64,000 nt of DNA from Candidatus Zhuqueibacterota bacterium (GTDB taxonomy: Bacteria; Zhuqueibacterota; Zhuqueibacteria; Residuimicrobiales; Krinioviventaceae): assembly GCA_034505495.1 (NCBI GenBank), contig JAPDQV010000009.1, positions 39,496-103,495 on the forward strand, read 5' to 3'. Shown here piece after piece: positions 5,321 through 37,718 of this stretch; the stretch's first letter is position 1; every line of letters begins with the position of its first letter. Below the pieces are notes generated by a model. That model saw nothing but the letters and a program-made list of their open reading frames with translations, made no database searches and had not been told where the DNA came from. The translations under genes and the position numbers were made by a program.

Positions 5321-6688
5321 CTAATTTTCCATATCAGACGGCAGGTCGAGGCCGTAACGCCGAATTTTTTCGTAAAGCGTCTTGCGGTCGATGCCCAATT
5401 GTCTGGCTGCCCGGCTGATGTTGTATCCCGCTGCCGCAAGCGTTTTGCGAATGTGCTCGCGCTCTACATCAGCCAAAGACAAAACTTCCGTTGCTTTAGT
5501 TTCGACTTGACGACGGATGTGCGGCGGCAAACTCGCAGGACGGATCAAATTGGATTCCTCGACAACCAAGGCCCGCTCGACGGCGTTCTGCAGTTCGCGG
5601 ATATTTCCGGGCCAAGGATAGTCGAGAAAAAGCTCGATCGCTTCATCGGAAAAACCTTCGACCGGCGTGTTACGACGCTTTATTTTGAATTGCTTGAGGA
5701 AATAATTTGCCAATAGAGGAATGTCCTCGCGACGTTCACGCAGCGGCGGAAGCTCGATGGGTATAACGTTAAGACGATAGTAAAGGTCTTCCCGGAATCG
5801 TCCCTCCTCCACCGCCTTTTTAAGATCGATATTGGCGGCGGCGATGACACGGACATCGACATGAATGGTCTGTGTGCTGCCGATGCGGCGAATTTCCTTT
5901 TCCTGCAGCGTGCGCAGAATTTTGGCTTGAATGCTTAGCGGGATATTGCCGACTTCATCAAAGAAAAAGGTGCCGCTGTGGGCAATCTCAAAGGCGCCGT
6001 GTTTGGTTTCCGTTGCGCCGGTAAAAGAGCCTTTGACGTGGCCGAAAAGTTCGCTTTCGAACAGAGTCTCGACCAGCGTACTACAGTCCATGACCACAAA
6101 CGGTTTGTCGCGTCGGGGTCCTGCGGCATGCACGGCTTTGGCGAAAAGCTCCTTGCCGGTCCCGCTCTCGCCGAGGATGAGCACCGTGCTGTCGGTCGGC
6201 GCCGCCTTAAGGATGAGATCATAGACCCTGCGGATGCGCTCACTCTTGCCTATGATGGTCAGAGGAGCGCCGTTGAAGGTTAAATGAAGCCCTGATTCAG
6301 GATCGATGTTGTACAACGACCGCTCTTCTTCGATCTTTTTAACCAATCGGACGAGTTTATCCGAGGAACTCGGTTTATCGAGATAATGAAAGGCTCCCAA
6401 TTTGATTGCTTCTACCGCCGTTTCGATGCTGGAAAAGGCGGTTACTAGAACAAACTCGGCACGCGGCGCCAACTCCTTGCCACTCTGGAGAAACTGGAGC
6501 CCGTCCATATCCGGCATCCGATAATCGACGAAAACAATTGCATAATCTCTTTTTTGCAGCTGTTCGAGTCCATCGGCGCCGTCTGCAGCGGTCGTCACGT
6601 CATAGCCGTGCTCGGTGAGGATGAGCGCGTAGGTGTGACGGATCATTTCGTCATCGTCGACGATCAGGATGTTGAGCGGCTCGTTCAT
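5321..6688 (-). CDS. Sigma-54-dependent response regulator (NtrC family): receiver, AAA+ sigma-54 activator domain, Fis-type helix-turn-helix
   Basis: ILIVDDDEMIRHTY and DYRMPDMDG (receiver). GESGTGKE Walker A, GAFE..GTFFFDEVG and RLNV (sigma-54 interaction). C-terminal LSRAARQLGIDRKTLYEKIRRYGL (Fis helix-turn-helix). GGAGAA Shine-Dalgarno. No histidine kinase adjacent. Confidence 0.9.
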   Translation of the reverse strand: MNEPLNILIVDDDEMIRHTYALILTEHGYDVTTAADGADGLEQLQKRDYAIVFVDYRMPDMDGLQFLQSGKELAPRAEFVLVTAFSSIETAVEAIKLGAFHYLDKPSSSDKLVRLVKKIEEERSLYNIDPESGLHLTFNGAPLTIIGKSERIRRVYDLILKAAPTDSTVLILGESGTGKELFAKAVHAAGPRRDKPFVVMDCSTLVETLFESELFGHVKGSFTGATETKHGAFEIAHSGTFFFDEVGNIPLSIQAKILRTLQEKEIRRIGSTQTIHVDVRVIAAANIDLKKAVEEGRFREDLYYRLNVIPIELPPLRERREDIPLLANYFLKQFKIKRRNTPVEGFSDEAIELFLDYPWPGNIRELQNAVERALVVEESNLIRPASLPPHIRRQVETKATEVLSLADVEREHIRKTLAAAGYNISRAARQLGIDRKTLYEKIRRYGLDLPSDMEN

Positions 6689-10274: not shown

Positions 10275-12206
10275 TTAAGGCAGAGAGCGTAACAGTTCTT
10301 CCAATTCGTTTTGGGTTGCGCCCCATTGCGCATACAATTCATCGATTTTTACTTTAATAAGATTCAATTCACGAGCCAAAGATGCAACCCGAGCGCCGTC
10401 TTTATAGGTCTGCGGATCGGCCAAAAGTCGCTCCACCTCTTCTCGACGTGCTTCTTGCTGCATGATTTCAGTTTCAAATTGGTTGATCAACGTCGTTAGT
10501 TCATTACGCCGCTTTGATACAGCCTGCCGGGCTTCAGCTTCCCGACGCTTTTCTTCCTTGGATTTATATCCGGGGGATGATGTTTTTTCATTACGCTCGG
10601 GGGGTGGCGATTCGGGAAGCGGCCGGCGGAGCCGCAAATAGTCGCTATAGTTGCCTTCGTATTGATGCAGCTCGCCATCGCGAAGCTCGAACACACGATT
10701 GACGATTTTGTCGAGGAAATAGCGGTCGTGAGAGATGAGCAACAGCGTACCGTCGTAAGAGGACAAGGCTTCTTCCAAAGCCTCGCGGGAAGCCATATCC
10801 AGGTGATTGGTCGGCTCGTCCATAATAAGAAAATTGGCCGGCGAGAGAAGGAAGCGACAAAGCGAGACGCGCGCCTTTTCCCCTCCGGAAAGAACGGCGA
10901 TCGGTTTAAAAACGTCGTCGCCGTGAAATCCGAACAAGCCGAGCAGGTTGCGAACGTGTTGAATCTGTTCTTCGGCGCAAAAGCCGAGCACCTGATCGAT
11001 GACCGTCAATGAAAGATCGAGAGCCTCGGTCTGATGCTGGGCATAGTAACCGACGGTCACTCTCCTGCCGAGCTGTACGTAACCCTGCTGCGGCGATAAA
11101 AATCCGGCCATCAGCTTGGCCAGCGTCGTCTTGCCGACGCCGTTTTCCCCCACCAGCGCCGCCTTTTGTCCGCGATAGAGGTCGAGTGAGATATTTCTCA
11201 ACACCCAATCGCGATCGTAGCGAAACCAAACATTCCGCAAATGAATAATGTCGTGATAACTTTCCTCGGCGGCCTGCAGTCTGATCCGATAGCTCTTGGG
11301 AGCTGTTTCCAGCTCGACATCCTGTAGTTTTTCCAACGCCTTGATGCGGCTTTGAACTTGACGCGCCTTGGTTGCTTTATAGCGGAAACGGTCGATAAAC
11401 TCCTGCTGCTTTTTTCGCTCTTTTACGACCAAGAGCGATTGCTTAAGGGCGGTCTCCCGTTCGAAGGCCTTTTGCCGTTCATAAGCATGATAGTTGCCCG
11501 TGTAGCCCTTTAGTCGTCCGTTATAAAGCTCGTAGATTTTTTGTGCGATGCGGTCGATAAAAAAGCGATCGTGCGAGATGACGACCACGCTGCCGCGAAA
11601 ATCTGAGAGATACTCTTCCAGCCACTCCAAAGAAGCGATATCCAAATGATTCGTCGGCTCGTCGAGAAGCAGGAGATCGGGATTCATCAGCAGCAGCCTG
11701 GCCAAATAGACGCGCATTCGCTTGCCGCCGCTGAACTCGTGTAAAGAACGATTGAAATCGTCCGGTTTGAAGCCGAGGCCGCTGAGTACGGCCTTGGCCT
11801 GCGTTTCGATCTTGTAGCCGTCGAGTGCCTGGAATCGGTGCTCGATCTCTCCCAACTGCGCAATCAGCTCCTCACTGGGATTCGCCTGTAATTGTCGGCG
11901 AAGCTCCTCCATCCTTTCGGCAAGCTTTAGCGCTTCCTCTTTGCCTGCTATGACGCAGTCGAGAATGGGTTGGTCGCGTTGATCGATCTCTTCTTGCGGC
12001 AAATAGCCGATACGATAGTCTTTCGGTTTGAGGATGTTCCCCCGATCGGGTCGGATTTCACCCGTCAGAATCCGGCAGAGCGTGGTTTTACCTGCGCCGT
12101 TCGGCCCGACAAGCGCGGCTCGACTTCCTTGGGGAATAGCCCAATCAATGCCGCGCAAAAGTTGTCGCACGCCGATTTCGTAGTAAATACCCTGGAGGCT
12201 GACCAT
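10275..12206 (-). CDS. ABC-F family ATPase (Uup/YheS/EttA-like), two ABC domains and a C-terminal coiled coil
   Basis: Two Walker A motifs (GPNGAGKTT, GENGVGKTT) and two signature motifs (FSGGKRMRV, LSGGEKARV). No transmembrane domain. Lys/Glu-rich coiled-coil tail. Confidence 0.9.
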   Translation of the reverse strand: MVSLQGIYYEIGVRQLLRGIDWAIPQGSRAALVGPNGAGKTTLCRILTGEIRPDRGNILKPKDYRIGYLPQEEIDQRDQPILDCVIAGKEEALKLAERMEELRRQLQANPSEELIAQLGEIEHRFQALDGYKIETQAKAVLSGLGFKPDDFNRSLHEFSGGKRMRVYLARLLLMNPDLLLLDEPTNHLDIASLEWLEEYLSDFRGSVVVISHDRFFIDRIAQKIYELYNGRLKGYTGNYHAYERQKAFERETALKQSLLVVKERKKQQEFIDRFRYKATKARQVQSRIKALEKLQDVELETAPKSYRIRLQAAEESYHDIIHLRNVWFRYDRDWVLRNISLDLYRGQKAALVGENGVGKTTLAKLMAGFLSPQQGYVQLGRRVTVGYYAQHQTEALDLSLTVIDQVLGFCAEEQIQHVRNLLGLFGFHGDDVFKPIAVLSGGEKARVSLCRFLLSPANFLIMDEPTNHLDMASREALEEALSSYDGTLLLISHDRYFLDKIVNRVFELRDGELHQYEGNYSDYLRLRRPLPESPPPERNEKTSSPGYKSKEEKRREAEARQAVSKRRNELTTLINQFETEIMQQEARREEVERLLADPQTYKDGARVASLARELNLIKVKIDELYAQWGATQNELEELLRSLP

Positions 12207-12278
12207 ATATCAGAGTTGTAAGTCTCTCGGGCGAACTTTTAAATGAGTGGAAGGTCTCATCAAGACAAAAAGCTTACG

Positions 12279-13040
12279 CTATTCTTTTTCAAGCTCGGCA
12301 ATGACGTGATAGATCTCCTTGTTGCCGAATTTCGTCTGATCAAGATAGATGGTTTTGGTGCGATATCCCGGCGAGGAAACCTGCAGCACATGGCCGGATG
12401 CTCGGCTCACCGGCGTCCGCAACGGAGACTGACCGACCACTTTGTCGTCTATGATGATTTGAGCGTGCTCCGGTACAGTATTGATCTGCAGCAGGACCTG
12501 GCCGGAACCTTCATCCGGCGGAAAATCGCTTTCGGTTGCGCCGGTTGGGACGTATTCCATCTCCAGCGACTCCATGCGGGCGGTGAAATACATGGTGCGA
12601 TTGACCGGCTCGCCGTTCGGCTTTTTGACGATCTCGGCAGTCACTACGGTCCGTTTGTCATGCTGCACCCGAATGAGGTCTTCGCTCAAAATCGGATATT
12701 CTTCCTCCCCCCAGCCGATGTTGGCAATATAGACCGCGCGCAGCTTGTAATATCCGGGTCGGAGGCGGAACTTGTAGACAAAGGTATTTTGAATGTTGGA
12801 AACCAGCCAATCGGGATCGATCGGTCGATCGTTCAAATAGAGCTCGACGCGGTTTTTATAGCTGCTTCTGGGATCCGCTACGTTTTTAATTTCGACTACA
12901 AGGTTTTCAGCGATCTGGGAAGGCAATTCCAATTGCTTGACCGGGCGAATGGCGTTGTAAGCCTCATCAACCGTTACTCGGCCTTTACAGCTCAACAAAA
13001 TCACGAAAAAAAGAAAAGTGAACAAGAGAACTTTTTTCAT
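12279..13040 (-). CDS. Lipoprotein with a C-terminal PEGA domain
   Basis: Signal plus lipobox FFVILLSC. TAGGAGA Shine-Dalgarno. C-terminus LLQINTVPEHAQIIIDDKVVGQSPLRTPVSRASGHVLQVSSPGYRT matches the PEGA pattern. Confidence 0.5.
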   Translation of the reverse strand: MKKVLLFTFLFFVILLSCKGRVTVDEAYNAIRPVKQLELPSQIAENLVVEIKNVADPRSSYKNRVELYLNDRPIDPDWLVSNIQNTFVYKFRLRPGYYKLRAVYIANIGWGEEEYPILSEDLIRVQHDKRTVVTAEIVKKPNGEPVNRTMYFTARMESLEMEYVPTGATESDFPPDEGSGQVLLQINTVPEHAQIIIDDKVVGQSPLRTPVSRASGHVLQVSSPGYRTKTIYLDQTKFGNKEIYHVIAELEKE

Positions 13041-13052
13041 CGCTCGCTTCTC

Positions 13053-13742
13053 CTATTTTGGGTCGTTCTTAAGACGCCTTTCAGCCCCCGATCGTTTACG
13101 GCTTGGATGGCTGAGGCCTGCGGCTATGCGATGGGCAACGGCGCGGTATTCGCCCCAATGACGCCAACGCTCGATGGTAAAGCTCTCCAATTGTTCGATT
13201 ACTTTTGCCAAATAGGGTCTCGGCACCCATTCATAACCGCTGATATTCTCGCTCGAATCAAGCGGCCGCGGCTGAGTGCCTTCCGTAACAACCTCGAACA
13301 GATAGGAGCATAGTCCCATTTTTCGTCGTGCGCAAACTATCGAGGAAAGTACAAGGCCGCGAAAGTGGATAAAGAGAGGCGAGAAAGAAGTCTCTTCGGC
13401 GAGTTCACGATGCAGAGCCTGCAGGACGGTTTCGTTCGGTTTGATTCCTCCGGTCGGTAAACGAAAGGTGTTCGGCGGATAGAACGGCTTGGTATGGAGC
13501 AGTATGCGGTTCTGGCTGCTACGGATGATTAGGACAACCTCGCCCCTTCTGTCCCTTTTTTCATAATAAATTTGCTGTAAGCCGTAAAAATATTGCCTGC
13601 CCACCTGCAGCTTGGCGCGATAAAAATCGGTTGGCCCGTATTTTTCGCACAACTCGATCACTTCATTGGCATGCAGCCATGGGGCATGAAGCTCTGAGTG
13701 CAGCACGTCCTTCCAGTCGGCCGGCCTAATCCGCGTCGTCAT
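13053..13742 (-). CDS. NUDIX hydrolase
   Basis: NUDIX box GGIKPNETVLQALHRELAEETSF (G-x5-E-x7-R-E-x2-E-E). The start overlaps the 3' end of the topoisomerase gene by 17 nt. Confidence 0.75.
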   Translation of the reverse strand: MTTRIRPADWKDVLHSELHAPWLHANEVIELCEKYGPTDFYRAKLQVGRQYFYGLQQIYYEKRDRRGEVVLIIRSSQNRILLHTKPFYPPNTFRLPTGGIKPNETVLQALHRELAEETSFSPLFIHFRGLVLSSIVCARRKMGLCSYLFEVVTEGTQPRPLDSSENISGYEWVPRPYLAKVIEQLESFTIERWRHWGEYRAVAHRIAAGLSHPSRKRSGAERRLKNDPK

Positions 13743-15513
13743 CCTCTTCCTTTTCGGCGTCCTCGTTGTATTCTTGCTCTTTTACCCATTGAAACTTGGT
13801 GCGCAGAGTGCGGGAGTAATACTTTTCCAGCACGTCATAGTTAACCTGCAGACCCCAATTGTAGTAGACCCTCGGATCAATATAAGACTTTTGGCTGGTC
13901 GTCAAATTCCATTCGCGGTTCTCCATGGCGATGGTCATTTGCGCCCGCAGCTTTCCCAAGGCAAAGTTCGCTTTTTCTTCGCGATCTTGAAGCGTTTCGA
14001 TCTTTTTCTGCAGGGTCTCGATCTTTTTTCGATAGCGCTCGACAAGTTTTTCTTTGTTCTTGCCGGCTTCTTTTTTCTTTTGCGACGCCTCTTTTTTCAG
14101 CTGTTTCAACGCCTCGTTTGCGGCTTTTAGCTGTTCCTGGATCTGCTTCAATCGTGCGGAAAGGGCTTTTTCCCGTTCTTTAAAGCGCTTGCGGCGTTCA
14201 GCCCAGTTCTTCGGCGCCTGGCGGGTGTGATTGCAGAGGATCGCCGCTTCGGTGTTGGCCTTTGTTGCCGCAGCCCATTTTACATATTCCGGATCATCGG
14301 CATCGACATCGGAAGCGGCCAGTGAACGACTGACGACCTGAGTGGCGTGATGTGTACGGAACACCTTGGCGGTCAATCCCGGCATGGCCTTTGACAGAAA
14401 GGCGTTGACATTGCGGCTGCTGACATCCGGGAAAATCTGCGGCTTGTTGTAGGCAGGATGCTTTTTATTGTTTTTTGCCGAAGCCGAAGGCCTCGCCTGG
14501 GCTACCAATTCCTTTAGATTTTCGACGACCTGCGGCGGTAATGGAATGCGCTTATGCCAAAGAACCGAGTCTTTGCCTAAAAATTTAAACTCTACGGTGC
14601 CGTCATCATGAAACTTTAGGTGTTCAGGACGCAGTGTGGTGGCGCCGACCGTATCCGCTTCATCCGGGTCCTTTTCGTCGCCGACGCGCAGGCAAAGATG
14701 ATCGATCAACGCGCAGGCGGTGGCAATTTTGCGAATTTTCGGGTCAGGATCCGTAAGTCCTTTGGCTATATGCTCCCGCACCGCCTCGATTTTTCCCGCC
14801 AGCTCGATGGCCTTGTCGAATTTTTGCGCCTCGCGTCTTTGCTTGATCGGCGTGTTGTCGTGCAGCCAAATGTATTTGAGCTTTCCTGAAAGCTTGTCTT
14901 CCCAGCGCGCTACCCACAGGCTATCGGGCTGCCAAACGATTTCTTTCCATTCCGACGGATCGATTTCGGCGTCCGGACTCAAGTTGAGGGTAACGTCTTT
15001 TTTCTGTGCGCCCTCTTTCCAGCGGCCGCGCAAGGGATGTTTGCCTCGTCCCATAAAAATGCCGGACGGCTCAGTCATGTAGGTCGCCAGTTCAATCCGT
15101 TCGCCGTCGGCAATGGCATAGCCGTATTGTTCTTTGAGCTGTTCGCGCAAAGCCTTTCGCTGCGCCGCCAAAGCTTTGCGCTCCTCTTTGCTCATAGCTT
15201 CGCGTTTGGCTTTTTCGGCGGCAACAAACTCGATGACCTCGCTGAAATCGATCTGATCGATCTGCAGCGGCTTTTCGAATCCCAAGGCGCGGCTGAAATC
15301 GGCCATAAAGTTTTTGACGAAAACCAAATCCTGCACATACGGCGTGCCGAGCTTTTTCACCCACGCTAATGCCATTTCTTCCTGCTTGGGTGTCAATTTG
15401 TGCGGTTTGCCGTCGATTTTAATCGTCAGACCCTGATAAGGAGGCGGTTCCGGTACAAGAACGCCCCTATGAATAAGCTGCTTGAGCATAGGCTCCCTAT
15501 TTTTGCATAACAT
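13726..15513 (-). CDS. Eukaryotic-type DNA topoisomerase IB (core subdomains, coiled-coil linker and C-terminal catalytic domain)
   Basis: Collinear similarity to human TOP1 (core, linker and C-terminal domains) as recalled from memory, not a database search: EPSGIFMGRGKHPLRG vs EPPGLFRGRGNHPKMG, FLGKDS, GLTAKVFRTHHAT vs GLTAKVFRTYNAS, AILCNHTRQAP vs AILCNHQRAPP, SQKSYIDPR vs SKLNYLDPR. All five catalytic residues are present in context (R in LRPEH, K in FLGKDS, R in KVFRT, H in CNHTR, Y in KSYIDPR). A Lys/Glu-rich coiled-coil linker is present (KEREKALSARLKQIQEQLKAANEALKQLKKE). An alternative ATG at 15489 has an AGGGAG Shine-Dalgarno. Confidence 0.85.
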   Translation of the reverse strand: MLCKNREPMLKQLIHRGVLVPEPPPYQGLTIKIDGKPHKLTPKQEEMALAWVKKLGTPYVQDLVFVKNFMADFSRALGFEKPLQIDQIDFSEVIEFVAAEKAKREAMSKEERKALAAQRKALREQLKEQYGYAIADGERIELATYMTEPSGIFMGRGKHPLRGRWKEGAQKKDVTLNLSPDAEIDPSEWKEIVWQPDSLWVARWEDKLSGKLKYIWLHDNTPIKQRREAQKFDKAIELAGKIEAVREHIAKGLTDPDPKIRKIATACALIDHLCLRVGDEKDPDEADTVGATTLRPEHLKFHDDGTVEFKFLGKDSVLWHKRIPLPPQVVENLKELVAQARPSASAKNNKKHPAYNKPQIFPDVSSRNVNAFLSKAMPGLTAKVFRTHHATQVVSRSLAASDVDADDPEYVKWAAATKANTEAAILCNHTRQAPKNWAERRKRFKEREKALSARLKQIQEQLKAANEALKQLKKEASQKKKEAGKNKEKLVERYRKKIETLQKKIETLQDREEKANFALGKLRAQMTIAMENREWNLTTSQKSYIDPRVYYNWGLQVNYDVLEKYYSRTLRTKFQWVKEQEYNEDAEKEEDDDAD

Positions 15514-15544
15514 GAAGATTTTAAATTAACAAACTTTATATAAT

Positions 15545-15568
15545 TTTTGCAAGCCAATAATTGCAAAA
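15545..15568. promoter_or_regulatory. Perfect inverted repeat TTTTGCAA-N8-TTGCAAAA in the divergent promoter region between the topoisomerase IB and porX-like genes; candidate operator
   Basis: Read directly from the sequence. A third copy of the half-site, TTTTGCA, lies at 15501-15507. Surrounding DNA is AT-rich. Confidence 0.35.
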
Positions 15569-15637
15569 GAGTTGTCTATTAAAAGAATTGACTCACGCCG
15601 GAAAAATTCTTACCTTAAAATCTATAATAGAGACTCT

Positions 15638-17200
15638 ATGAGCAACGAAAAGAAAATACTTTGGGTTGACGACGAGATCGAGCTGCTGCGGCCGCACGTT
15701 CTCTATTTGGAAAGTAAAGGCTACTCGGTCACCACATTGACGAACGCCGAGGACGCAGTCGAGCGCGTGAAGGTTGAAGATTTCGATATTGTGCTCCTCG
15801 ACGAGATGCTGAACGGCATGGACGGCCTCTCCGCCTTGTCCGAAATCAAAGAAATACGCCCCGGCCTGCCGATCATTATGGTGACCAAGAGCGAAGAAGA
15901 GTCGCTGATGGAAGAAGCCATCGGCTCTAAAATTGACGATTATTTGACCAAGCCCGTCAATCCGAGCCAAATTTTGCTCGTCTGCAAAAAGCTTTTGGAA
16001 AAACGCAAGATCGCCGGCCATATCCTAAGTCGCGATTACGCGGAAGAATTCAACAAGCTTTCCCTCAGGCTTATGGAGCCGCTCGACTGGAAGGACTGGA
16101 TTGAAATCCACGTCGAGTTGTCCGAGTGGGAATTGGAGCTGGATGCTCATCCCGAGTTGGGACTTAAGCAGCTGCTTTCAGATCAGCGCCGCGCCTGCAA
16201 TACTGCATTCGGCAAATTCATCGAAAATCACTATAAAAACTGGCTCTACGCTTCCAGCCGGCCGCCGCTTTCGGTCGACATCATCGGGAACTATGTCCTG
16301 CCCCACCTGAAGAACGGCAAGAGGACCATCTTTTTGGTCATCGATGCCCTTCGCCTCGATCAATGGCTCGTTTTAGAGCCGTTGCTGCGGAATTGGTTCA
16401 GGATTACGCGCGATTACTATTACTCGATTTTGCCGACTGCTACCCCCTATTCGCGAAACGCAATTTTCAGCGGTCTTTTTCCGGCAGACATTGAACGCAT
16501 GTATCCGCAGATTTGGGAAGAGGCAGCCGAAGAGGAAGATGATCAAAGCCTCAATCGATATGAGCATATGCTGCTCGAAGAATTGTTAAAGCGGCTCTCC
16601 CCTGCCCATCAGTGGGGGATCAAATACGCTAAAATTTTGGATGTCAAGGAAGCGACGGACGTGGCGCGGCGTATCAATGAGTACGCTTCGGCGCCGCTCG
16701 GTGCGATTGTATTGAATTTTGTCGATATTTTGGCTCACTCGCGCAGTTCGATCGATCTTTTGAAAGAAATGATTCCCGATGAAGCCGCCTTTCGGTCCAT
16801 GACTCGCGCCTGGTTCGAGCATTCGGCCATTTTTCAGGCGCTGCAGCATTTGGCGGAGCACGAAAACACTGTGGTCATCACCTCGGATCACGGCAGCATC
16901 CGCGGCCTGCGCGGCGCCAAAGTGATCGGCGACCGCCGAACGTCGACCAGTCTGCGCTACAAGTACGGCAAAAACATCAAGGCCGATCCGAAGCAGGCAT
17001 TGATTATCCCGAATCCGGCAGAGTACCGCCTGCCATCGCGCGGCATCAATTCTAATTACATTATTGCCAAAGAGGATTTCTATTTTGTCTATCCGACGAA
17101 TTACCATTACTATCTCAACTATTACGCCGACAGCTTTCAGCACGGCGGCATCTCTCTAGAAGAAATGATTCTTCCGGTGGTCACTTTGGAGCCGAAATGA
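15638..17200 (+). CDS. porX: PorX-like orphan response regulator: CheY receiver plus PglZ/alkaline-phosphatase-like domain (T9SS regulator family)
   Basis: Receiver domain KILWVDDEIELLRPH..DIVLLDEMLNGMDGL..IIMVTK..KIDDYLTKPV. It is followed by a ~390-aa PglZ-like domain. At 520 aa from ATG 15638 it matches PorX length. The track ORF extends further upstream to TTG 15572. Confidence 0.7.
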   Translation: MSNEKKILWVDDEIELLRPHVLYLESKGYSVTTLTNAEDAVERVKVEDFDIVLLDEMLNGMDGLSALSEIKEIRPGLPIIMVTKSEEESLMEEAIGSKIDDYLTKPVNPSQILLVCKKLLEKRKIAGHILSRDYAEEFNKLSLRLMEPLDWKDWIEIHVELSEWELELDAHPELGLKQLLSDQRRACNTAFGKFIENHYKNWLYASSRPPLSVDIIGNYVLPHLKNGKRTIFLVIDALRLDQWLVLEPLLRNWFRITRDYYYSILPTATPYSRNAIFSGLFPADIERMYPQIWEEAAEEEDDQSLNRYEHMLLEELLKRLSPAHQWGIKYAKILDVKEATDVARRINEYASAPLGAIVLNFVDILAHSRSSIDLLKEMIPDEAAFRSMTRAWFEHSAIFQALQHLAEHENTVVITSDHGSIRGLRGAKVIGDRRTSTSLRYKYGKNIKADPKQALIIPNPAEYRLPSRGINSNYIIAKEDFYFVYPTNYHYYLNYYADSFQHGGISLEEMILPVVTLEPK

Positions 17201-34349: not shown

Positions 34350-37300
34350 TTAACGAACCAGAGTAAATTTGCGAATTTCAATATAATCATCGGCTTGCAG
34401 CCGATAAAAGTAGACACCGGACGAAAAGCTGTCTCCGCGCCAGAGAATCGAATGGCGGCCGGTATCCAGGAATTCATCGAGCAATGAACTAATCAGCTGT
34501 CCGCGTAGATTATACACCTGCAGTTTCACCCGTGAAGGGCACGGCAAATCGAAAGGAATCGTCGTCTGGGCATTAAAGGGATTGGGATAATTTTGGTAAA
34601 GCCGATATTCGCGGACGGCCATTTCTTGAGCTTCCACGCTCGCGGCGATAAAGTCATCGCGGTTTGGTGTGCCGTGGAGGACGCTCGAGGCAATCCAGTT
34701 GCGTCCGTCGTTGCTGTCCTGCCAAGGTTCTAAATCGCGAGACGTCAGGCTATAGCCGCCGCCGTCCGCCGAGCGCGGCCAAGGCCAACGATCATCATAT
34801 CGCACAGTAAAAAGCGTGTCTTCGCCGGCGGTAAAGACCAAAGTTTCGCCGCCGTTATCCAGTCTGCCGACAAAAACGCCGTGAGGATAAAAGCCGTAGC
34901 GGGAAAAGAAAGCGGCGGAATCGGCTGCTAAAACGACAAAGCTCTTGCCAGGCAGGCGGAATCCTTCCTGAAAGCGATACACAATGCCGCGCGCAAACCC
35001 GCAACCGCTTAGATTCAATTCTTCTTCGCCAATATTTTTGAGCTCAATAAATTCGTACAAATCATCATCGTTCGCTTCGGCCCTAGAAGGGAGCGGGTGA
35101 TAATGAATTTCTGTGACCTTGAGGTTTTCGAGTCCCTTTAGCACCGCAAAGACTGTTTCCGTCAGCGGACTCCATTGGCCGCTATACGCCCGCACTTTGA
35201 GATGCGTGGTGTGTTCAATAACCAGAGGGCGTTCATAGCGCACGGCGGTCGGAGACAAAGCTTCGCGGCTGACGGCGCGGCCGATGAGGAGTTCGGCTGA
35301 AAAGAGAAAATCCGAGCTGTTTGCTGACGCATTCAAAGCGTGCACGGCGAGGAAATTGTCGCCGTCGGTCAGCCGATTCAATGAGTTCGATATGTCAAAC
35401 ATCTCCCACCCGGTGCTCTCGTGCAGACCGGCAGCCTGAGCGTCCCAAGTTATCGTTTCCGGGGCCAAAGCGTCGGCGCAGCGCCAACCGTTCAAATAGG
35501 CTGCAAAACCGTCGTCGTACATTACTTTGAGTTGGAGAATGTTAAAGTCTTGTAGCTCTGCCTTGTTCACGCGGAATGGAATGCGTATGTAGCAGGAAGT
35601 CTGCCTATTGTACATTCGGCTGCCGACGTCGATATGGATATAAGGCTCATAACCGGTGTCGCGTTCATAGCCGACCCCTCCCCTGCCGTGCAGCCAGCTC
35701 GAAAAATCCATGGTGACCGGCCTGCGCCAATTAAAGTCCATCTTTTGTTCCGGCACCAAGACATATTTTTCCGCGTTCTCATTAAAAAGCGTCCTCAATT
35801 CCCCGTGCAAAAGTCCTATTTGATAGGGGTCGCTGCCGTCAGTTGTGTAATAAATCTCTCCCGGCGAAGAAATTTGTACTGTGAACCCTTTGGGAACGAT
35901 GCCGCTTTTGGCGTTCAGCCGTGGTGCAGAAAGGTCATTTATCCATCCTTTGGTCTTAAATTGATTGAGCACGACGGCGGTGCGATTCGGAAAGAATTCG
36001 TTCAAAATTCGATTGACTGCCGGCAGCCAGGCATTGTCCTTTGTAAAAGGAACGTTGCGTTTCGAGTCGCCCCAGCGGGCTGACTCGGCAATGATCGCCT
36101 TGTCGATTTGCGCCTTTCGCTGCAAAAGGCGTTCGGCGCAACGATGGGGCGTCAGGGCACCGTCGCCGGTAAAGTGCAGGGCAACGCGATCGGCAAAGCG
36201 TGCGCGATAAGCCGGATGCTCCATCAGGCGTTGGTGTAGATAGTGCGGATTTGATTTATCAAAGCTGCTGCCGGCCGGATAGGGTCCCGTGCGGTTTTCG
36301 TTTACATTCAGCAGCGTATGCTCGGCGTCATGCTGAAAAAAGACGAACCCGCGGCGATCGACGCGGCTGCGTACGGCAAAAAAGTTGTTGGGGCTGGTGT
36401 TGTTCAAAAAATTGCTGACCGGCGCATCCAGATTGCCGGTGTAAAAAGTGATCAGCATATAGTCGATCAGGTTATCGATATCCAACAACACCGGTAAAGC
36501 CTGATTGGGTGTGCCGTCCGGATTTTTGCCTTGAATCAAATAATAGGCCGAATCAGATCGAAAGCCGTTGCGTGCGATTTCCCACAGCGTTCGCCAGGCG
36601 TCGAGGGTCCCGTCGGTGGCTTCGATGATATACCCTTGATCAGCCGCCACCTTGATGACATCATAGTCTTCCGGCGCGCCGCCCAAATAGCCCGCGGCAA
36701 ACGACGCCTCGGAGCGCTCCTGAGTTTGATACAGCCCCCAGTAGGTGCCGTTGATGTACAGATGGTAATATCGGCTGCGTGTATAAGGGTGGCCCATGTC
36801 GCGCTGGCAATCGCGCGAAAAAACATCACGAAGCAGGGTGTTTTGATCCGAACCGTCAAACGCCCAGGAATAGTTTTGGCTGGTGCGCAGATCGACCGCA
36901 TCGAATTCGTCTACTCCCTCATCGCCGAACAACGGATACTTTAACTTGCCTTGGCCGTATTCTCGGCGGAAGAAAAAGCGAAAGGCGTGCTTCGGGTTTT
37001 GATTGCTGCGACTGTACCCGCCGCGGATGCGCACGCCGGCATCAATTTGAAATCCGGGTTCGCCGTTCGGTAAAATAAGCTCCAACGAGCACGGTCTTTC
37101 CCAATCCGGTCCGTGATTGCCGGCATTTACATAAATCCCGCGCTTCGCGTCAAAAAGATCGCGCAGGTCCATGACCATGGAAATCGACGGGATGTCCAAA
37201 AATGCCGGAACAATTTGATCGCGATAGAGGCGGTGATTATAAACATCCGGATCGAGGCCGTAATGGATGAACTGTTGATCGCCGCTGAAGCGTTGCGGCG

Positions 37301-37718
37301 GCCAACCGGGGCCTGGACGCCTGCCGTCGGGAGAAAGTTCGACGATACGGTGGACAAACAGGAAAGTGTGGGTTTCGATTCGACTGACGGGCTTGCCGTT
37401 CTGCAGCGCCACCGCCCTTACGCAGACTCCCGGAGCCAAATCATGCAGCAGCGTATCGGCAGGGTCGATTGCGATCTCTGCGGGCGAAGCAGCCGATTGG
37501 GCCGAAGGCGAATTAATCGGATTAGTTCCATCGAAGCAATATCGGATCAGGGCAGTGGGAACATCCGCAACGATCGTCAAGGTAAAATTGTCGCGATAGA
37601 TACCCCGTGTATGCGAAAAATGCAGAGCAACCGGGTATTCGTTCGTCTGACCTTGAGCCCGGTCATGAAACAAAAGAAGGGGAATAAGAAAGATGGTCAA
37701 ATTTGCATGACGGCGCAT
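34350..37718 (-). CDS. Large secreted CotH-like protein with chitobiase/hexosaminidase-C-like domains, a lamin-tail domain (LTD) and a T9SS C-terminal sorting domain
   Basis: Signal peptide MRRHANLTIFLIPLLLF. Two CHB_HEX_C-like segments (FSHTRGIYRDNFTLTIVADVPTALIRYCFDGTNP; GFTVQISSPGEIYYTTDGSDP). LTD motif LKVTEIHYHP...YEFIELKNIGEEELNLSGCGF. C-terminus YPNPFNAQTTIPFDL...GVYFYRLQADDYIEIRKFTLVR is the T9SS sorting-domain pattern. CotH assignment rests on domain architecture only. Confidence 0.5.
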   Translation of the reverse strand: MRRHANLTIFLIPLLLFHDRAQGQTNEYPVALHFSHTRGIYRDNFTLTIVADVPTALIRYCFDGTNPINSPSAQSAASPAEIAIDPADTLLHDLAPGVCVRAVALQNGKPVSRIETHTFLFVHRIVELSPDGRRPGPGWPPQRFSGDQQFIHYGLDPDVYNHRLYRDQIVPAFLDIPSISMVMDLRDLFDAKRGIYVNAGNHGPDWERPCSLELILPNGEPGFQIDAGVRIRGGYSRSNQNPKHAFRFFFRREYGQGKLKYPLFGDEGVDEFDAVDLRTSQNYSWAFDGSDQNTLLRDVFSRDCQRDMGHPYTRSRYYHLYINGTYWGLYQTQERSEASFAAGYLGGAPEDYDVIKVAADQGYIIEATDGTLDAWRTLWEIARNGFRSDSAYYLIQGKNPDGTPNQALPVLLDIDNLIDYMLITFYTGNLDAPVSNFLNNTSPNNFFAVRSRVDRRGFVFFQHDAEHTLLNVNENRTGPYPAGSSFDKSNPHYLHQRLMEHPAYRARFADRVALHFTGDGALTPHRCAERLLQRKAQIDKAIIAESARWGDSKRNVPFTKDNAWLPAVNRILNEFFPNRTAVVLNQFKTKGWINDLSAPRLNAKSGIVPKGFTVQISSPGEIYYTTDGSDPYQIGLLHGELRTLFNENAEKYVLVPEQKMDFNWRRPVTMDFSSWLHGRGGVGYERDTGYEPYIHIDVGSRMYNRQTSCYIRIPFRVNKAELQDFNILQLKVMYDDGFAAYLNGWRCADALAPETITWDAQAAGLHESTGWEMFDISNSLNRLTDGDNFLAVHALNASANSSDFLFSAELLIGRAVSREALSPTAVRYERPLVIEHTTHLKVRAYSGQWSPLTETVFAVLKGLENLKVTEIHYHPLPSRAEANDDDLYEFIELKNIGEEELNLSGCGFARGIVYRFQEGFRLPGKSFVVLAADSAAFFSRYGFYPHGVFVGRLDNGGETLVFTAGEDTLFTVRYDDRWPWPRSADGGGYSLTSRDLEPWQDSNDGRNWIASSVLHGTPNRDDFIAASVEAQEMAVREYRLYQNYPNPFNAQTTIPFDLPCPSRVKLQVYNLRGQLISSLLDEFLDTGRHSILWRGDSFSSGVYFYRLQADDYIEIRKFTLVR

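Follow-up and report, generated by a model that had tools for sequence, protein, structure and literature searches.

Known long-form TopIB enzymes and the KSB1 gene

Among prokaryotes, the long form of type IB DNA topoisomerase (TopIB) was seen by Dahmane et al. 2016 only in Thaumarchaeota (PMC4824112), and Takahashi et al. 2022 extended it to BAT archaea and Asgard, with bacteria depicted as having the short form only (PMC8748870). Asgard TOP1 proteins with a long linker are recorded in the latter work, and the "eukaryotic-type topoisomerase IB" has been counted among the Asgard eukaryotic signature proteins (bioRxiv 10.1101/858530). Here we describe a long-form TopIB gene on the minus strand (13726..15489) of a 64,000-nucleotide stretch of the bacterial contig JAPDQV010000009.1 (GCA_034505495.1), which is called the window below and gives all positions. 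The encoded protein (587 aa if translation begins, as is probable, at ATG 15489) is confirmed as a full-length long-form (eukaryote/archaeal-type) TopIB. We consider it very likely that it is a functional enzyme, resident in candidate division KSB1, from a large clade of KSB1 and Chloroflexota/Anaerolineae sequences sharing an ancestor with Asgard TOP1 to the exclusion of TACK and eukaryotic TOP1. This is a known enzyme family in an unexpected domain of life, and not a new enzyme class or mechanism. No report of a bacterial long TopIB was found in the literature searched, which is no proof that none exists, and public databases already call many of these proteins "DNA topoisomerase I"; a sizeable bacterial clade of likely Asgard origin has apparently gone undiscussed.

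The closest described enzymes are the TOP1 proteins of Heimdall-, Thor-, Loki-, Sif- and Gerdarchaeota. Like the window protein, they have three domains, the catalytic pentad, a lengthened linker and Ser as the residue next to the catalytic Tyr on its N-terminal side, they group with the bacterial clade at 99-100% bootstrap, and they show around 57% identity to it outside the linker. They differ by the archaeal host and, in most forms, by a longer linker, with a His-to-Tyr spacing of 164-210 against about 116 in the window protein, whose spacing is closest to a type represented by the sequence P0123 (123-140). The window protein thus shows the grouping, the linker and the Ser of the Asgard-type long-linker subgroup, while the bacterial sequences form a monophyletic clade of their own.

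Among enzymes of solved structure, TOP1 of Caldiarchaeum subterraneum (CsTOP1, PDB 6z01/6z03) is the best match, and it also has no eukaryote-type charged N-terminal domain. However, its linker has around 57 aa against around 101 aa in the window protein, an Asn precedes its Tyr, and it falls outside the clade of Asgard and bacteria. CsTOP1 relaxes both supercoil signs biochemically (PMC4824112, PMC8748870) and by analogy would be the best functional proxy for the window enzyme. Human TOP1 (PDB 1a36, 1k4t) is collinear with the window protein and shares the pentad and the closed clamp (TM 0.70), but it carries a charged N-terminal domain of about 200 aa that is absent here, its linker is about 24 aa shorter, it has Asn at position 722 instead of Ser, and it belongs to a separate eukaryotic clade (bootstrap 99-100). 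As the window protein starts at core subdomain I and lies outside that clade, it is not a eukaryotic nuclear TOP1 proper. The short poxvirus-like TopIB of Deinococcus radiodurans (2f4q/3m4a; Krogh & Shuman 2002) has the same catalytic fold and chemistry in a C-terminal catalytic domain; it differs by its size (about 310-350 aa), by a different small N-terminal domain, and by the lack of both the linker and Topoisom_I_N.

Domain architecture, active site and predicted structure

All the parts of a long-form TopIB were found in the window protein: CAP module, catalytic core, linker, C-terminal Tyr domain and clamp fold. Residue numbers refer to the 595-codon open reading frame (ORF) at 13726-15513 on the minus strand (ATG to TAG, stop codon at 13726-13728), unless 587-aa numbering is stated. 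Three Pfam domains score far above their gathering cut-offs. Topoisom_I_N (PF02919; E 2.4e-50, profile positions 4-213 of 213) covers residues 11-217 (14863..15483) and corresponds to the CAP module, or core subdomains I-II, modelled with a predicted local distance difference test (pLDDT) score above 90. The catalytic core, Topoisom_I (PF01028; E 3.4e-62), covers residues 223-461 (14131..14847), and the C-terminal domain, Topo_C_assoc (PF14370; E 3.5e-14), residues 520-581 (13771..13956). NCBIfam has no model for long TopIB, and its only match to the protein is a spurious coiled-coil.

By HMMER, residues 12-580 align with residues 219-758 of human TOP1 in one collinear stretch (245-247 bits; 35% identity over 524 aligned positions). 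The best PDB sequence match is CsTOP1 (6z01) with 459 bits and E 2e-136, whereas the short Deinococcus enzyme (2f4q) reaches just 24.6 bits over residues 208-407, that is, the catalytic domain alone. The original prediction, made from the sequence without database searches, had described a collinear, full-length relative of human TOP1 and not a short poxvirus-like enzyme, and both statements are borne out by these scores and by the presence of Topoisom_I and Topoisom_I_N, plus Topo_C_assoc.

Human residues were mapped from the HMMER alignment (chain index + 200 = human numbering), and K532, R590, H632 and Y723 all fall on their known human motifs. The residues aligned with human R488, K532, R590, H632 and Y723 are R276 (codon 14686-14688), K314 (14572-14574), R386 (14356-14358), H429 (14227-14229) and Y544 (13882-13884, within SQKSYIDPR), all on the minus strand, so the pentad R-K-R-H-Y is intact; the first four lie in the catalytic core. 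It had been proposed that the five catalytic residues occur in their native contexts. This holds for four of them, FLGKDS for K314, KVFRT for R386, CNHTR for H429 and KSYIDPR for Y544, but not for LRPEH, since the arginine of TLRPEH aligns with human R508 and not with R488. The true catalytic Arg is present elsewhere: human R488 sits in LALRAGNEK, and its counterpart R276 in CLRVGDEK. The five residues are invariant in 68/68 aligned clade members and in 107/107 tree sequences, and the human DNA-contact and drug-site residues F361, G363, R364, D533 and T718 are also conserved in the window protein.

From an alignment of 68 sequences, AlphaFold2 gave a confident model (mean pLDDT 89.3, predicted TM-score 0.78) that superposes on the human TOP1-DNA clamp; the structural prediction proposed earlier as a check agrees with the domain assignment. 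Foldseek comparison with the closed human TOP1-DNA complexes 1rrj and 1k4t gave TM-scores of 0.70 (query) and 0.72 (target) over about 585 columns, and the yeast N-terminal fragment 1ois gave a target TM-score of 0.79. The best E-values belong to CsTOP1 (3e-46), with lower TM-scores because CsTOP1 was crystallised in an open form. Only about 240 columns could be aligned with the short variola and Deinococcus enzymes, which together with the 587-aa length of the window protein places it outside the short class. The linker is an extended antiparallel coiled-coil hairpin of two 46-residue helices (437-482 and 487-532, or 429-474 and 479-524 in 587-aa numbering; 13918..14205, minus strand, from the secondary structure of the model), with pLDDT mostly above 90, and about 101 residues of the window protein align with the 77-aa human linker. 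The protein ends in an acidic, predicted-disordered tail (…NEDAEKEEDDDAD; 13729..13773, minus strand), with pLDDT below 50 in the last 15 residues.

The true start of the gene is probably the second ATG, at 15489 (587 aa), and not ATG 15513, since it is indicated both by the N-termini of homologs and by the alignment to PDB 6z01, which begins at residue 11 of the 595-aa ORF. In 67 clade members the consensus N-terminus is MLxQLIHNGV, and the window sequence MLKQLIHRGV matches it at the second ATG. A Shine-Dalgarno-like AGGGAG, read from the sequence (15493..15498, minus strand), is found 3 nt upstream of this ATG; the alternative start with a Shine-Dalgarno site, pointed out before, is now the preferred one.

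Distribution in bacteria and viruses

Protein searches were run with two queries, the window protein and one Chloroflexota representative. Among the matches listed, there were 120 full-length relatives per query, all with at least 58% identity, and both queries together gave more than 200 distinct 90%-identity clusters in the KSB1 and Anaerolineae clade. The earlier view that long TopIB is rare in bacteria was not upheld by this number. The labels of the listed matches are KSB1, Anaerolineae/Chloroflexota or "bacterium", except for one Calditrichota. A scan of GTDB species, which used six exact peptide patterns of a single protein and is not a prevalence census, found 10 loci, comprising KSB1, five Chloroflexota metagenome-assembled genomes (MAGs), one "Cytophagia" MAG with KSB1-type synteny and one Thorarchaeota archaeon.

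Some of the bacterial relatives have unusual structures. Within the Chloroflexota type, a subset of Anaerolineae-type proteins measuring some 740-785 aa (P0121, P0432, P0456 and others) is extended at the C-terminus by about 170 aa that match no Pfam family, and P0426 (972 aa) has a class-V aminotransferase domain, either fused or mis-called. In a Chloroflexia MAG (MFD00709.bin.2.156; L010 6001-7701), the TopIB frame is in three pieces, with breaks at 6219/6240 and 6632/6625 that may be assembly frameshifts or the mark of a pseudogene.

In IMG/VR, 71 loci with a long-form TopIB were found (L014-L084), mostly in giant-virus MAGs (GVMAG) and some on contigs longer than 1 Mb. The closest match, with 39% identity, is on a 58-kb contig (IMGVR_UViG_3300009503_000396, 8001-9515). 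Since all the matches have 27-39% identity and none of the 71 contigs carries a member of the bacterial TopIB clade, a viral vector for this clade was ruled out.

Phylogenetic placement and origin

A HMMER search of 1.84 billion 50%-identity representatives recovered 589 sequences at E<=1e-30, and neighbour-joining trees on Kimura-corrected distances were built with 100-200 bootstraps from 130 and then 107 sequences. Eukaryotic TOP1 forms a clade (bootstrap 99-100%) that leaves out the window protein, and several archaeal lineages are present in the tree, the CsTOP1 group among them. The bacterial clade is monophyletic (100%), with a KSB1 subclade (88-100%) and a Chloroflexota-type subclade (73-95%), and it groups with Asgard TOP1 at 99-100%, with or without the linker columns. 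When the low-complexity linker columns were removed, the bacterial clade and the clade of bacteria and Asgard were each recovered in 200/200 replicates. Outside the linker, the identity is around 57% with Asgard TOP1, around 52% with TACK and 34% with eukaryotic sequences. The label "eukaryote-type" given to the gene at the beginning is right as to the long form and wrong as to the nearest relatives, which are Asgard and TACK archaeal TOP1.

Two characters that do not depend on the tree, linker length and the Ser before the Tyr, agree with this grouping. The His-to-Tyr spacing is 115 in the window protein, 115-133 in bacteria and 123-140 in the P0123 type, against 164-167 in the Heimdall type, 210 in the Thor/Loki type, 67 in CsTOP1 and 91 in human TOP1. 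The residue ahead of the catalytic Tyr is Ser in every bacterial and Asgard sequence and mostly Asn in the others. The best sister of the bacterial clade is the P0123/P0340 lineage (129/200 replicates without the linker, 66/200 with it), which is most likely Asgard archaeal, judging from its gene context, where a gelsolin gene with two domains, genes of MJ families and a CRISPR locus of type III-B are found. In both contigs examined from this lineage, the gelsolin gene comes directly after TOP1 on the opposite strand (L012 9017-9616 and L086 12084-12683).

Rooted on eukaryotes, the clade of bacteria and Asgard is nested among TACK-type, CsTOP1-like archaeal lineages, and for this reason the most likely scenario appears to be an ancient transfer from Asgard-related archaea to bacteria, followed by a transfer between KSB1 and Chloroflexota. 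The opposite direction, with the long-linker TOP1 arising in KSB1 or Chloroflexota and passing to Asgard archaea, seems unlikely to us. It is true that the monophyly of Asgard excluding bacteria was recovered in 74/200 replicates with the linker and in 8-9/200 without it, so the topology alone does not polarise the transfer. However, besides the nesting among other archaea with eukaryotes as outgroup, at least three deep Asgard sublineages (Heimdall-type, Thor/Loki/Sif-type and P0123-type) carry the long-linker TOP1, whereas among labelled sequences it is found in just two bacterial phyla, in one shallow clade with 60-79% identity.

Several points weigh against a functional enzyme of Asgard-related origin as proposed here. 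The trees are neighbour-joining trees on Kimura distances rather than maximum likelihood trees with site-heterogeneous models, the sister relation with the P0123 type has the moderate support given above, and eukaryotes serve as the outgroup, a choice on which the rooting, and with it the direction of transfer, depends. Taxa were labelled through MAG binning, with inconsistencies in a few cases ("Cytophagia", "Calditrichota", "Zixibacteria", "Bathyarchaeia"). Finally, the activity of the bacterial clade members is deduced from homology to human TOP1 and CsTOP1.

Two sequences with such labels, P0283 (L085 8001-9839, GCA_035528535.1, labelled Zixibacteria) and P0306 (labelled Bathyarchaeia), fall firmly inside the Heimdallarchaeota TOP1 clade, as a result of either mis-binning or further transfers. 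The neighbours in L085 (NrdD, radical SAM, peptidase C11 and a weak S_layer_C) do not decide between the two.

The bacterial clade limits the use of long TopIB as a domain marker and, if it was acquired from Asgard-related archaea as proposed, would weaken TOP1 as an archaeal/eukaryotic signature protein. It would then also document the interdomain transfer of a core DNA-topology enzyme.

Proposed activity

By homology, the enzyme would work as a TOP1-type "swivelase": the CAP and catalytic lobes would clamp the duplex DNA, and Tyr544, helped by R276, K314, R386 and H429, would cut one strand to give a 3'-phosphotyrosyl intermediate. The free 5'-OH end could then turn around the intact strand, relaxing positive and negative supercoils with no need for ATP or Mg2+, and the nick would be resealed after rotation. 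Rotation and religation are probably tuned by the coiled-coil linker, which is unusually long, and the bacterial variants with intermediate linkers would be useful for studying the mechanism of linker function and drug sensitivity.

The type IA topoisomerase I of bacteria is not known to remove positive supercoils. We suggest that the window enzyme works alongside the usual bacterial set, relaxing supercoils of both signs independently of ATP. Among the 10 largest ORFs of the window, no other topoisomerase gene was found. A bolder scenario, which we regard as rather doubtful, is that a eukaryote-signature TOP1 passed long ago from an Asgard-related archaeon into two bacterial phyla and was retained there as a core chromosomal enzyme, where it may be the main ATP-independent relaxase of positive supercoils, possibly offsetting a missing or altered canonical topoisomerase.

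The Ser before Tyr544 occupies the position of human N722, where the N722S change, the subject of PDB 1rrj, confers camptothecin resistance on human TOP1. A low camptothecin sensitivity of the window enzyme might be expected from this residue, but the prediction is weak because CsTOP1, which has Asn at this position, is also camptothecin-resistant (PMC8748870).

Gene neighbourhood and the overlap with the NUDIX gene

The TopIB locus is repeated in six independent KSB1 assemblies (L001, L002, L007, L008, L011 and L013), with 68-99% TopIB identity. The shared arrangement is GuaA-SurE-AccD-RimI-TsaB-TsaE-PorX, then the divergent TopIB, then NUDIX-PEGA-ABC-F. In the window, the three genes downstream of TopIB, all on the minus strand, encode a NUDIX hydrolase of 229 aa (13053..13742; Pfam NUDIX, E 3.3e-14), a PEGA-domain protein of 253 aa (12279..13040; Pfam), located 12 nt downstream of NUDIX and syntenic in L001, L007, L008, L011 and L013, and an ABC-F family ATPase of 643 aa (10275..12206; NF000355), located 72 nt downstream of PEGA and the final member of this co-directional cluster. 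For the NUDIX protein, no NCBIfam equivalog reaches its cut-off, and the RppH, NudE and MutT models give sub-threshold matches only.

The last 17 nt at the 3' end of the TopIB gene overlap the start of the NUDIX gene, as noticed from the outset, and the overlap is real: the NUDIX ATG at 13742 is backed by five orthologs that align from Met1. This direct contact is confined to the sub-lineage of the window, with 17 nt of overlap in the window and L001 and 26 nt in L011 (79% TopIB identity). The two genes are separated by a gene for an NtrC-type sigma-54 response regulator in L007 and L013, and by the regulator together with sucC/sucD in L008. The Chloroflexota TopIB loci have housekeeping neighbours (tRNA methyltransferase, homoserine dehydrogenase, alcohol dehydrogenase), with NUDIX absent nearby. 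The pairing asked about in related genomes thus recurs in L001 and L011, but it is interrupted in L007, L008 and L013 and absent in Chloroflexota. We suggest that the direct overlap is probably a derived state of the sub-lineage of the window, after loss of the regulator gene.

It would be tempting to see TopIB and the overlapping NUDIX as a translationally coupled functional module, for example for a nucleotide- or ADP-ribose-linked control of the topoisomerase, since the frames overlap in three loci and the terminator scan shows none between them. We consider this improbable, and a functional TopIB-NUDIX pair is not supported: the two genes are separated in the other KSB1 loci just mentioned, NUDIX keeps company with PEGA and ABC-F instead of TopIB, it is lacking around the Chloroflexota genes, and the overlap resembles a secondary deletion of the intervening regulator. 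The co-transcription of TopIB, NUDIX, PEGA and ABC-F is plausible from their spacing (-17, +12 and +72 nt), with no shared function implied. Scans for sigma-70 promoters and intrinsic terminators between 10 and 16 kb gave counts at or below the shuffled expectation and thus have no bearing on the operon.

Conservation and bacterial residence

Between the window and a 96.5%-identical sister genome, the TopIB gene shows 35 synonymous and 5 nonsynonymous differences, with a nonsynonymous to synonymous rate ratio (dN/dS) of 0.037, and is thus under purifying selection. It could still be asked whether the gene is a decaying or non-catalytic relic, for example a DNA-binding protein with no topoisomerase action, given that bacteria normally manage supercoiling without TopIB and that its activity is predicted from the sequence. 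We find this very improbable, considering the dN/dS value, the pentad that is invariant in all clade members, the ORF kept full-length in dozens of genomes and the confident closed-clamp model.

The origin of the gene in a true bacterial chromosome is indicated by several observations. The window protein has 100% identity to a partial NCBI protein from a "candidate division KSB1 bacterium", and the contig JAPDPN010000022 of a KSB1 MAG is 96.5% identical to the window over 7.8 kb. Elsewhere, the window codes for bacterial functions such as type IX secretion system (T9SS) cargo, glycoside hydrolases and sugar kinases. The codon usage of TopIB is closer to that of the window than in the average gene (z=+1.5; GC 0.518, GC at third codon positions 0.614), and the GC content is flat across the gene borders. 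Since codon usage, GC and the synteny conserved in independent assemblies agree, contamination or chimerism is effectively excluded and TopIB is a resident, vertically inherited chromosomal gene of KSB1. The first reading of the sequence had considered contamination unlikely from the codon style and the bacterial flanking genes, and named a GC break at the gene borders as the sign that would speak for a chimera. The codon style indeed matches, no break was found, and the flanking genes are bacterial by NCBIfam (PorX, 696 bits for a cut-off of 300; ABC-F, 452 bits for a cut-off of 380).

A chimera, in which an assembly or binning artefact has attached a gene from an archaeon or eukaryote to a bacterial contig, would fit the literature, which otherwise places the family in archaea or eukaryotes (PMC4824112, PMC8748870), and the data do derive from MAGs. 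However, the same bacterial neighbours flank the gene in the six independent assemblies, at 68-99% protein identity, its codon fit is better than that of the average window gene with no GC break, and its reading frame overlaps that of NUDIX, a gene with a syntenic position of its own in KSB1, so that such an artefact has next to no probability.

Equally negligible is a mobile element or an anti-phage island of the BREX type including TopIB, suggested by the PglZ domain of the divergent neighbour (weak BREX-3 PglZ match, 107 bits, under its cut-off of 250), as this neighbour scores as the PorX equivalog. Neither an integrase nor a transposase was seen close to TopIB or in the 10 largest annotated ORFs, housekeeping genes make up the flanks (TsaE, TsaB, RimI, AccD, SurE, GuaA), and none of the IMG/VR contigs carries the bacterial TopIB clade. 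The neighbourhood does not have the features of a BREX/PglZ defence island, and that reading is ruled out, since the neighbour is PorX and the synteny with housekeeping genes is conserved.

Other features of the window

The divergent neighbour on the plus strand (15572..17200) encodes the T9SS response regulator PorX, with receiver and PglZ domains (NF052313, T9SS_RR_PorX). The ORF as listed opens at TTG 15572, and the NF052313 match begins at residue 28 (model position 2). The true start is probably Met23, at ATG 15638, 22 codons further in, which would leave a divergent TopIB/PorX intergenic region of about 150 bp, AT-rich (GC 0.44 at 15250-15999).

Antisense to PEGA and NUDIX, there is an ORF of 356 codons (12243-13313, plus strand) with the third-worst codon fit in the window (z=-1.9), which is almost certainly a shadow ORF and not a gene. 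Further away, a CotH-kinase-domain protein of 1122 aa (34350-37718, minus strand) contains a lamin-tail domain and ends in a sorting signal of the T9SS type; together with PorX, this protein shows that a type IX secretion system is encoded in the KSB1 genome.

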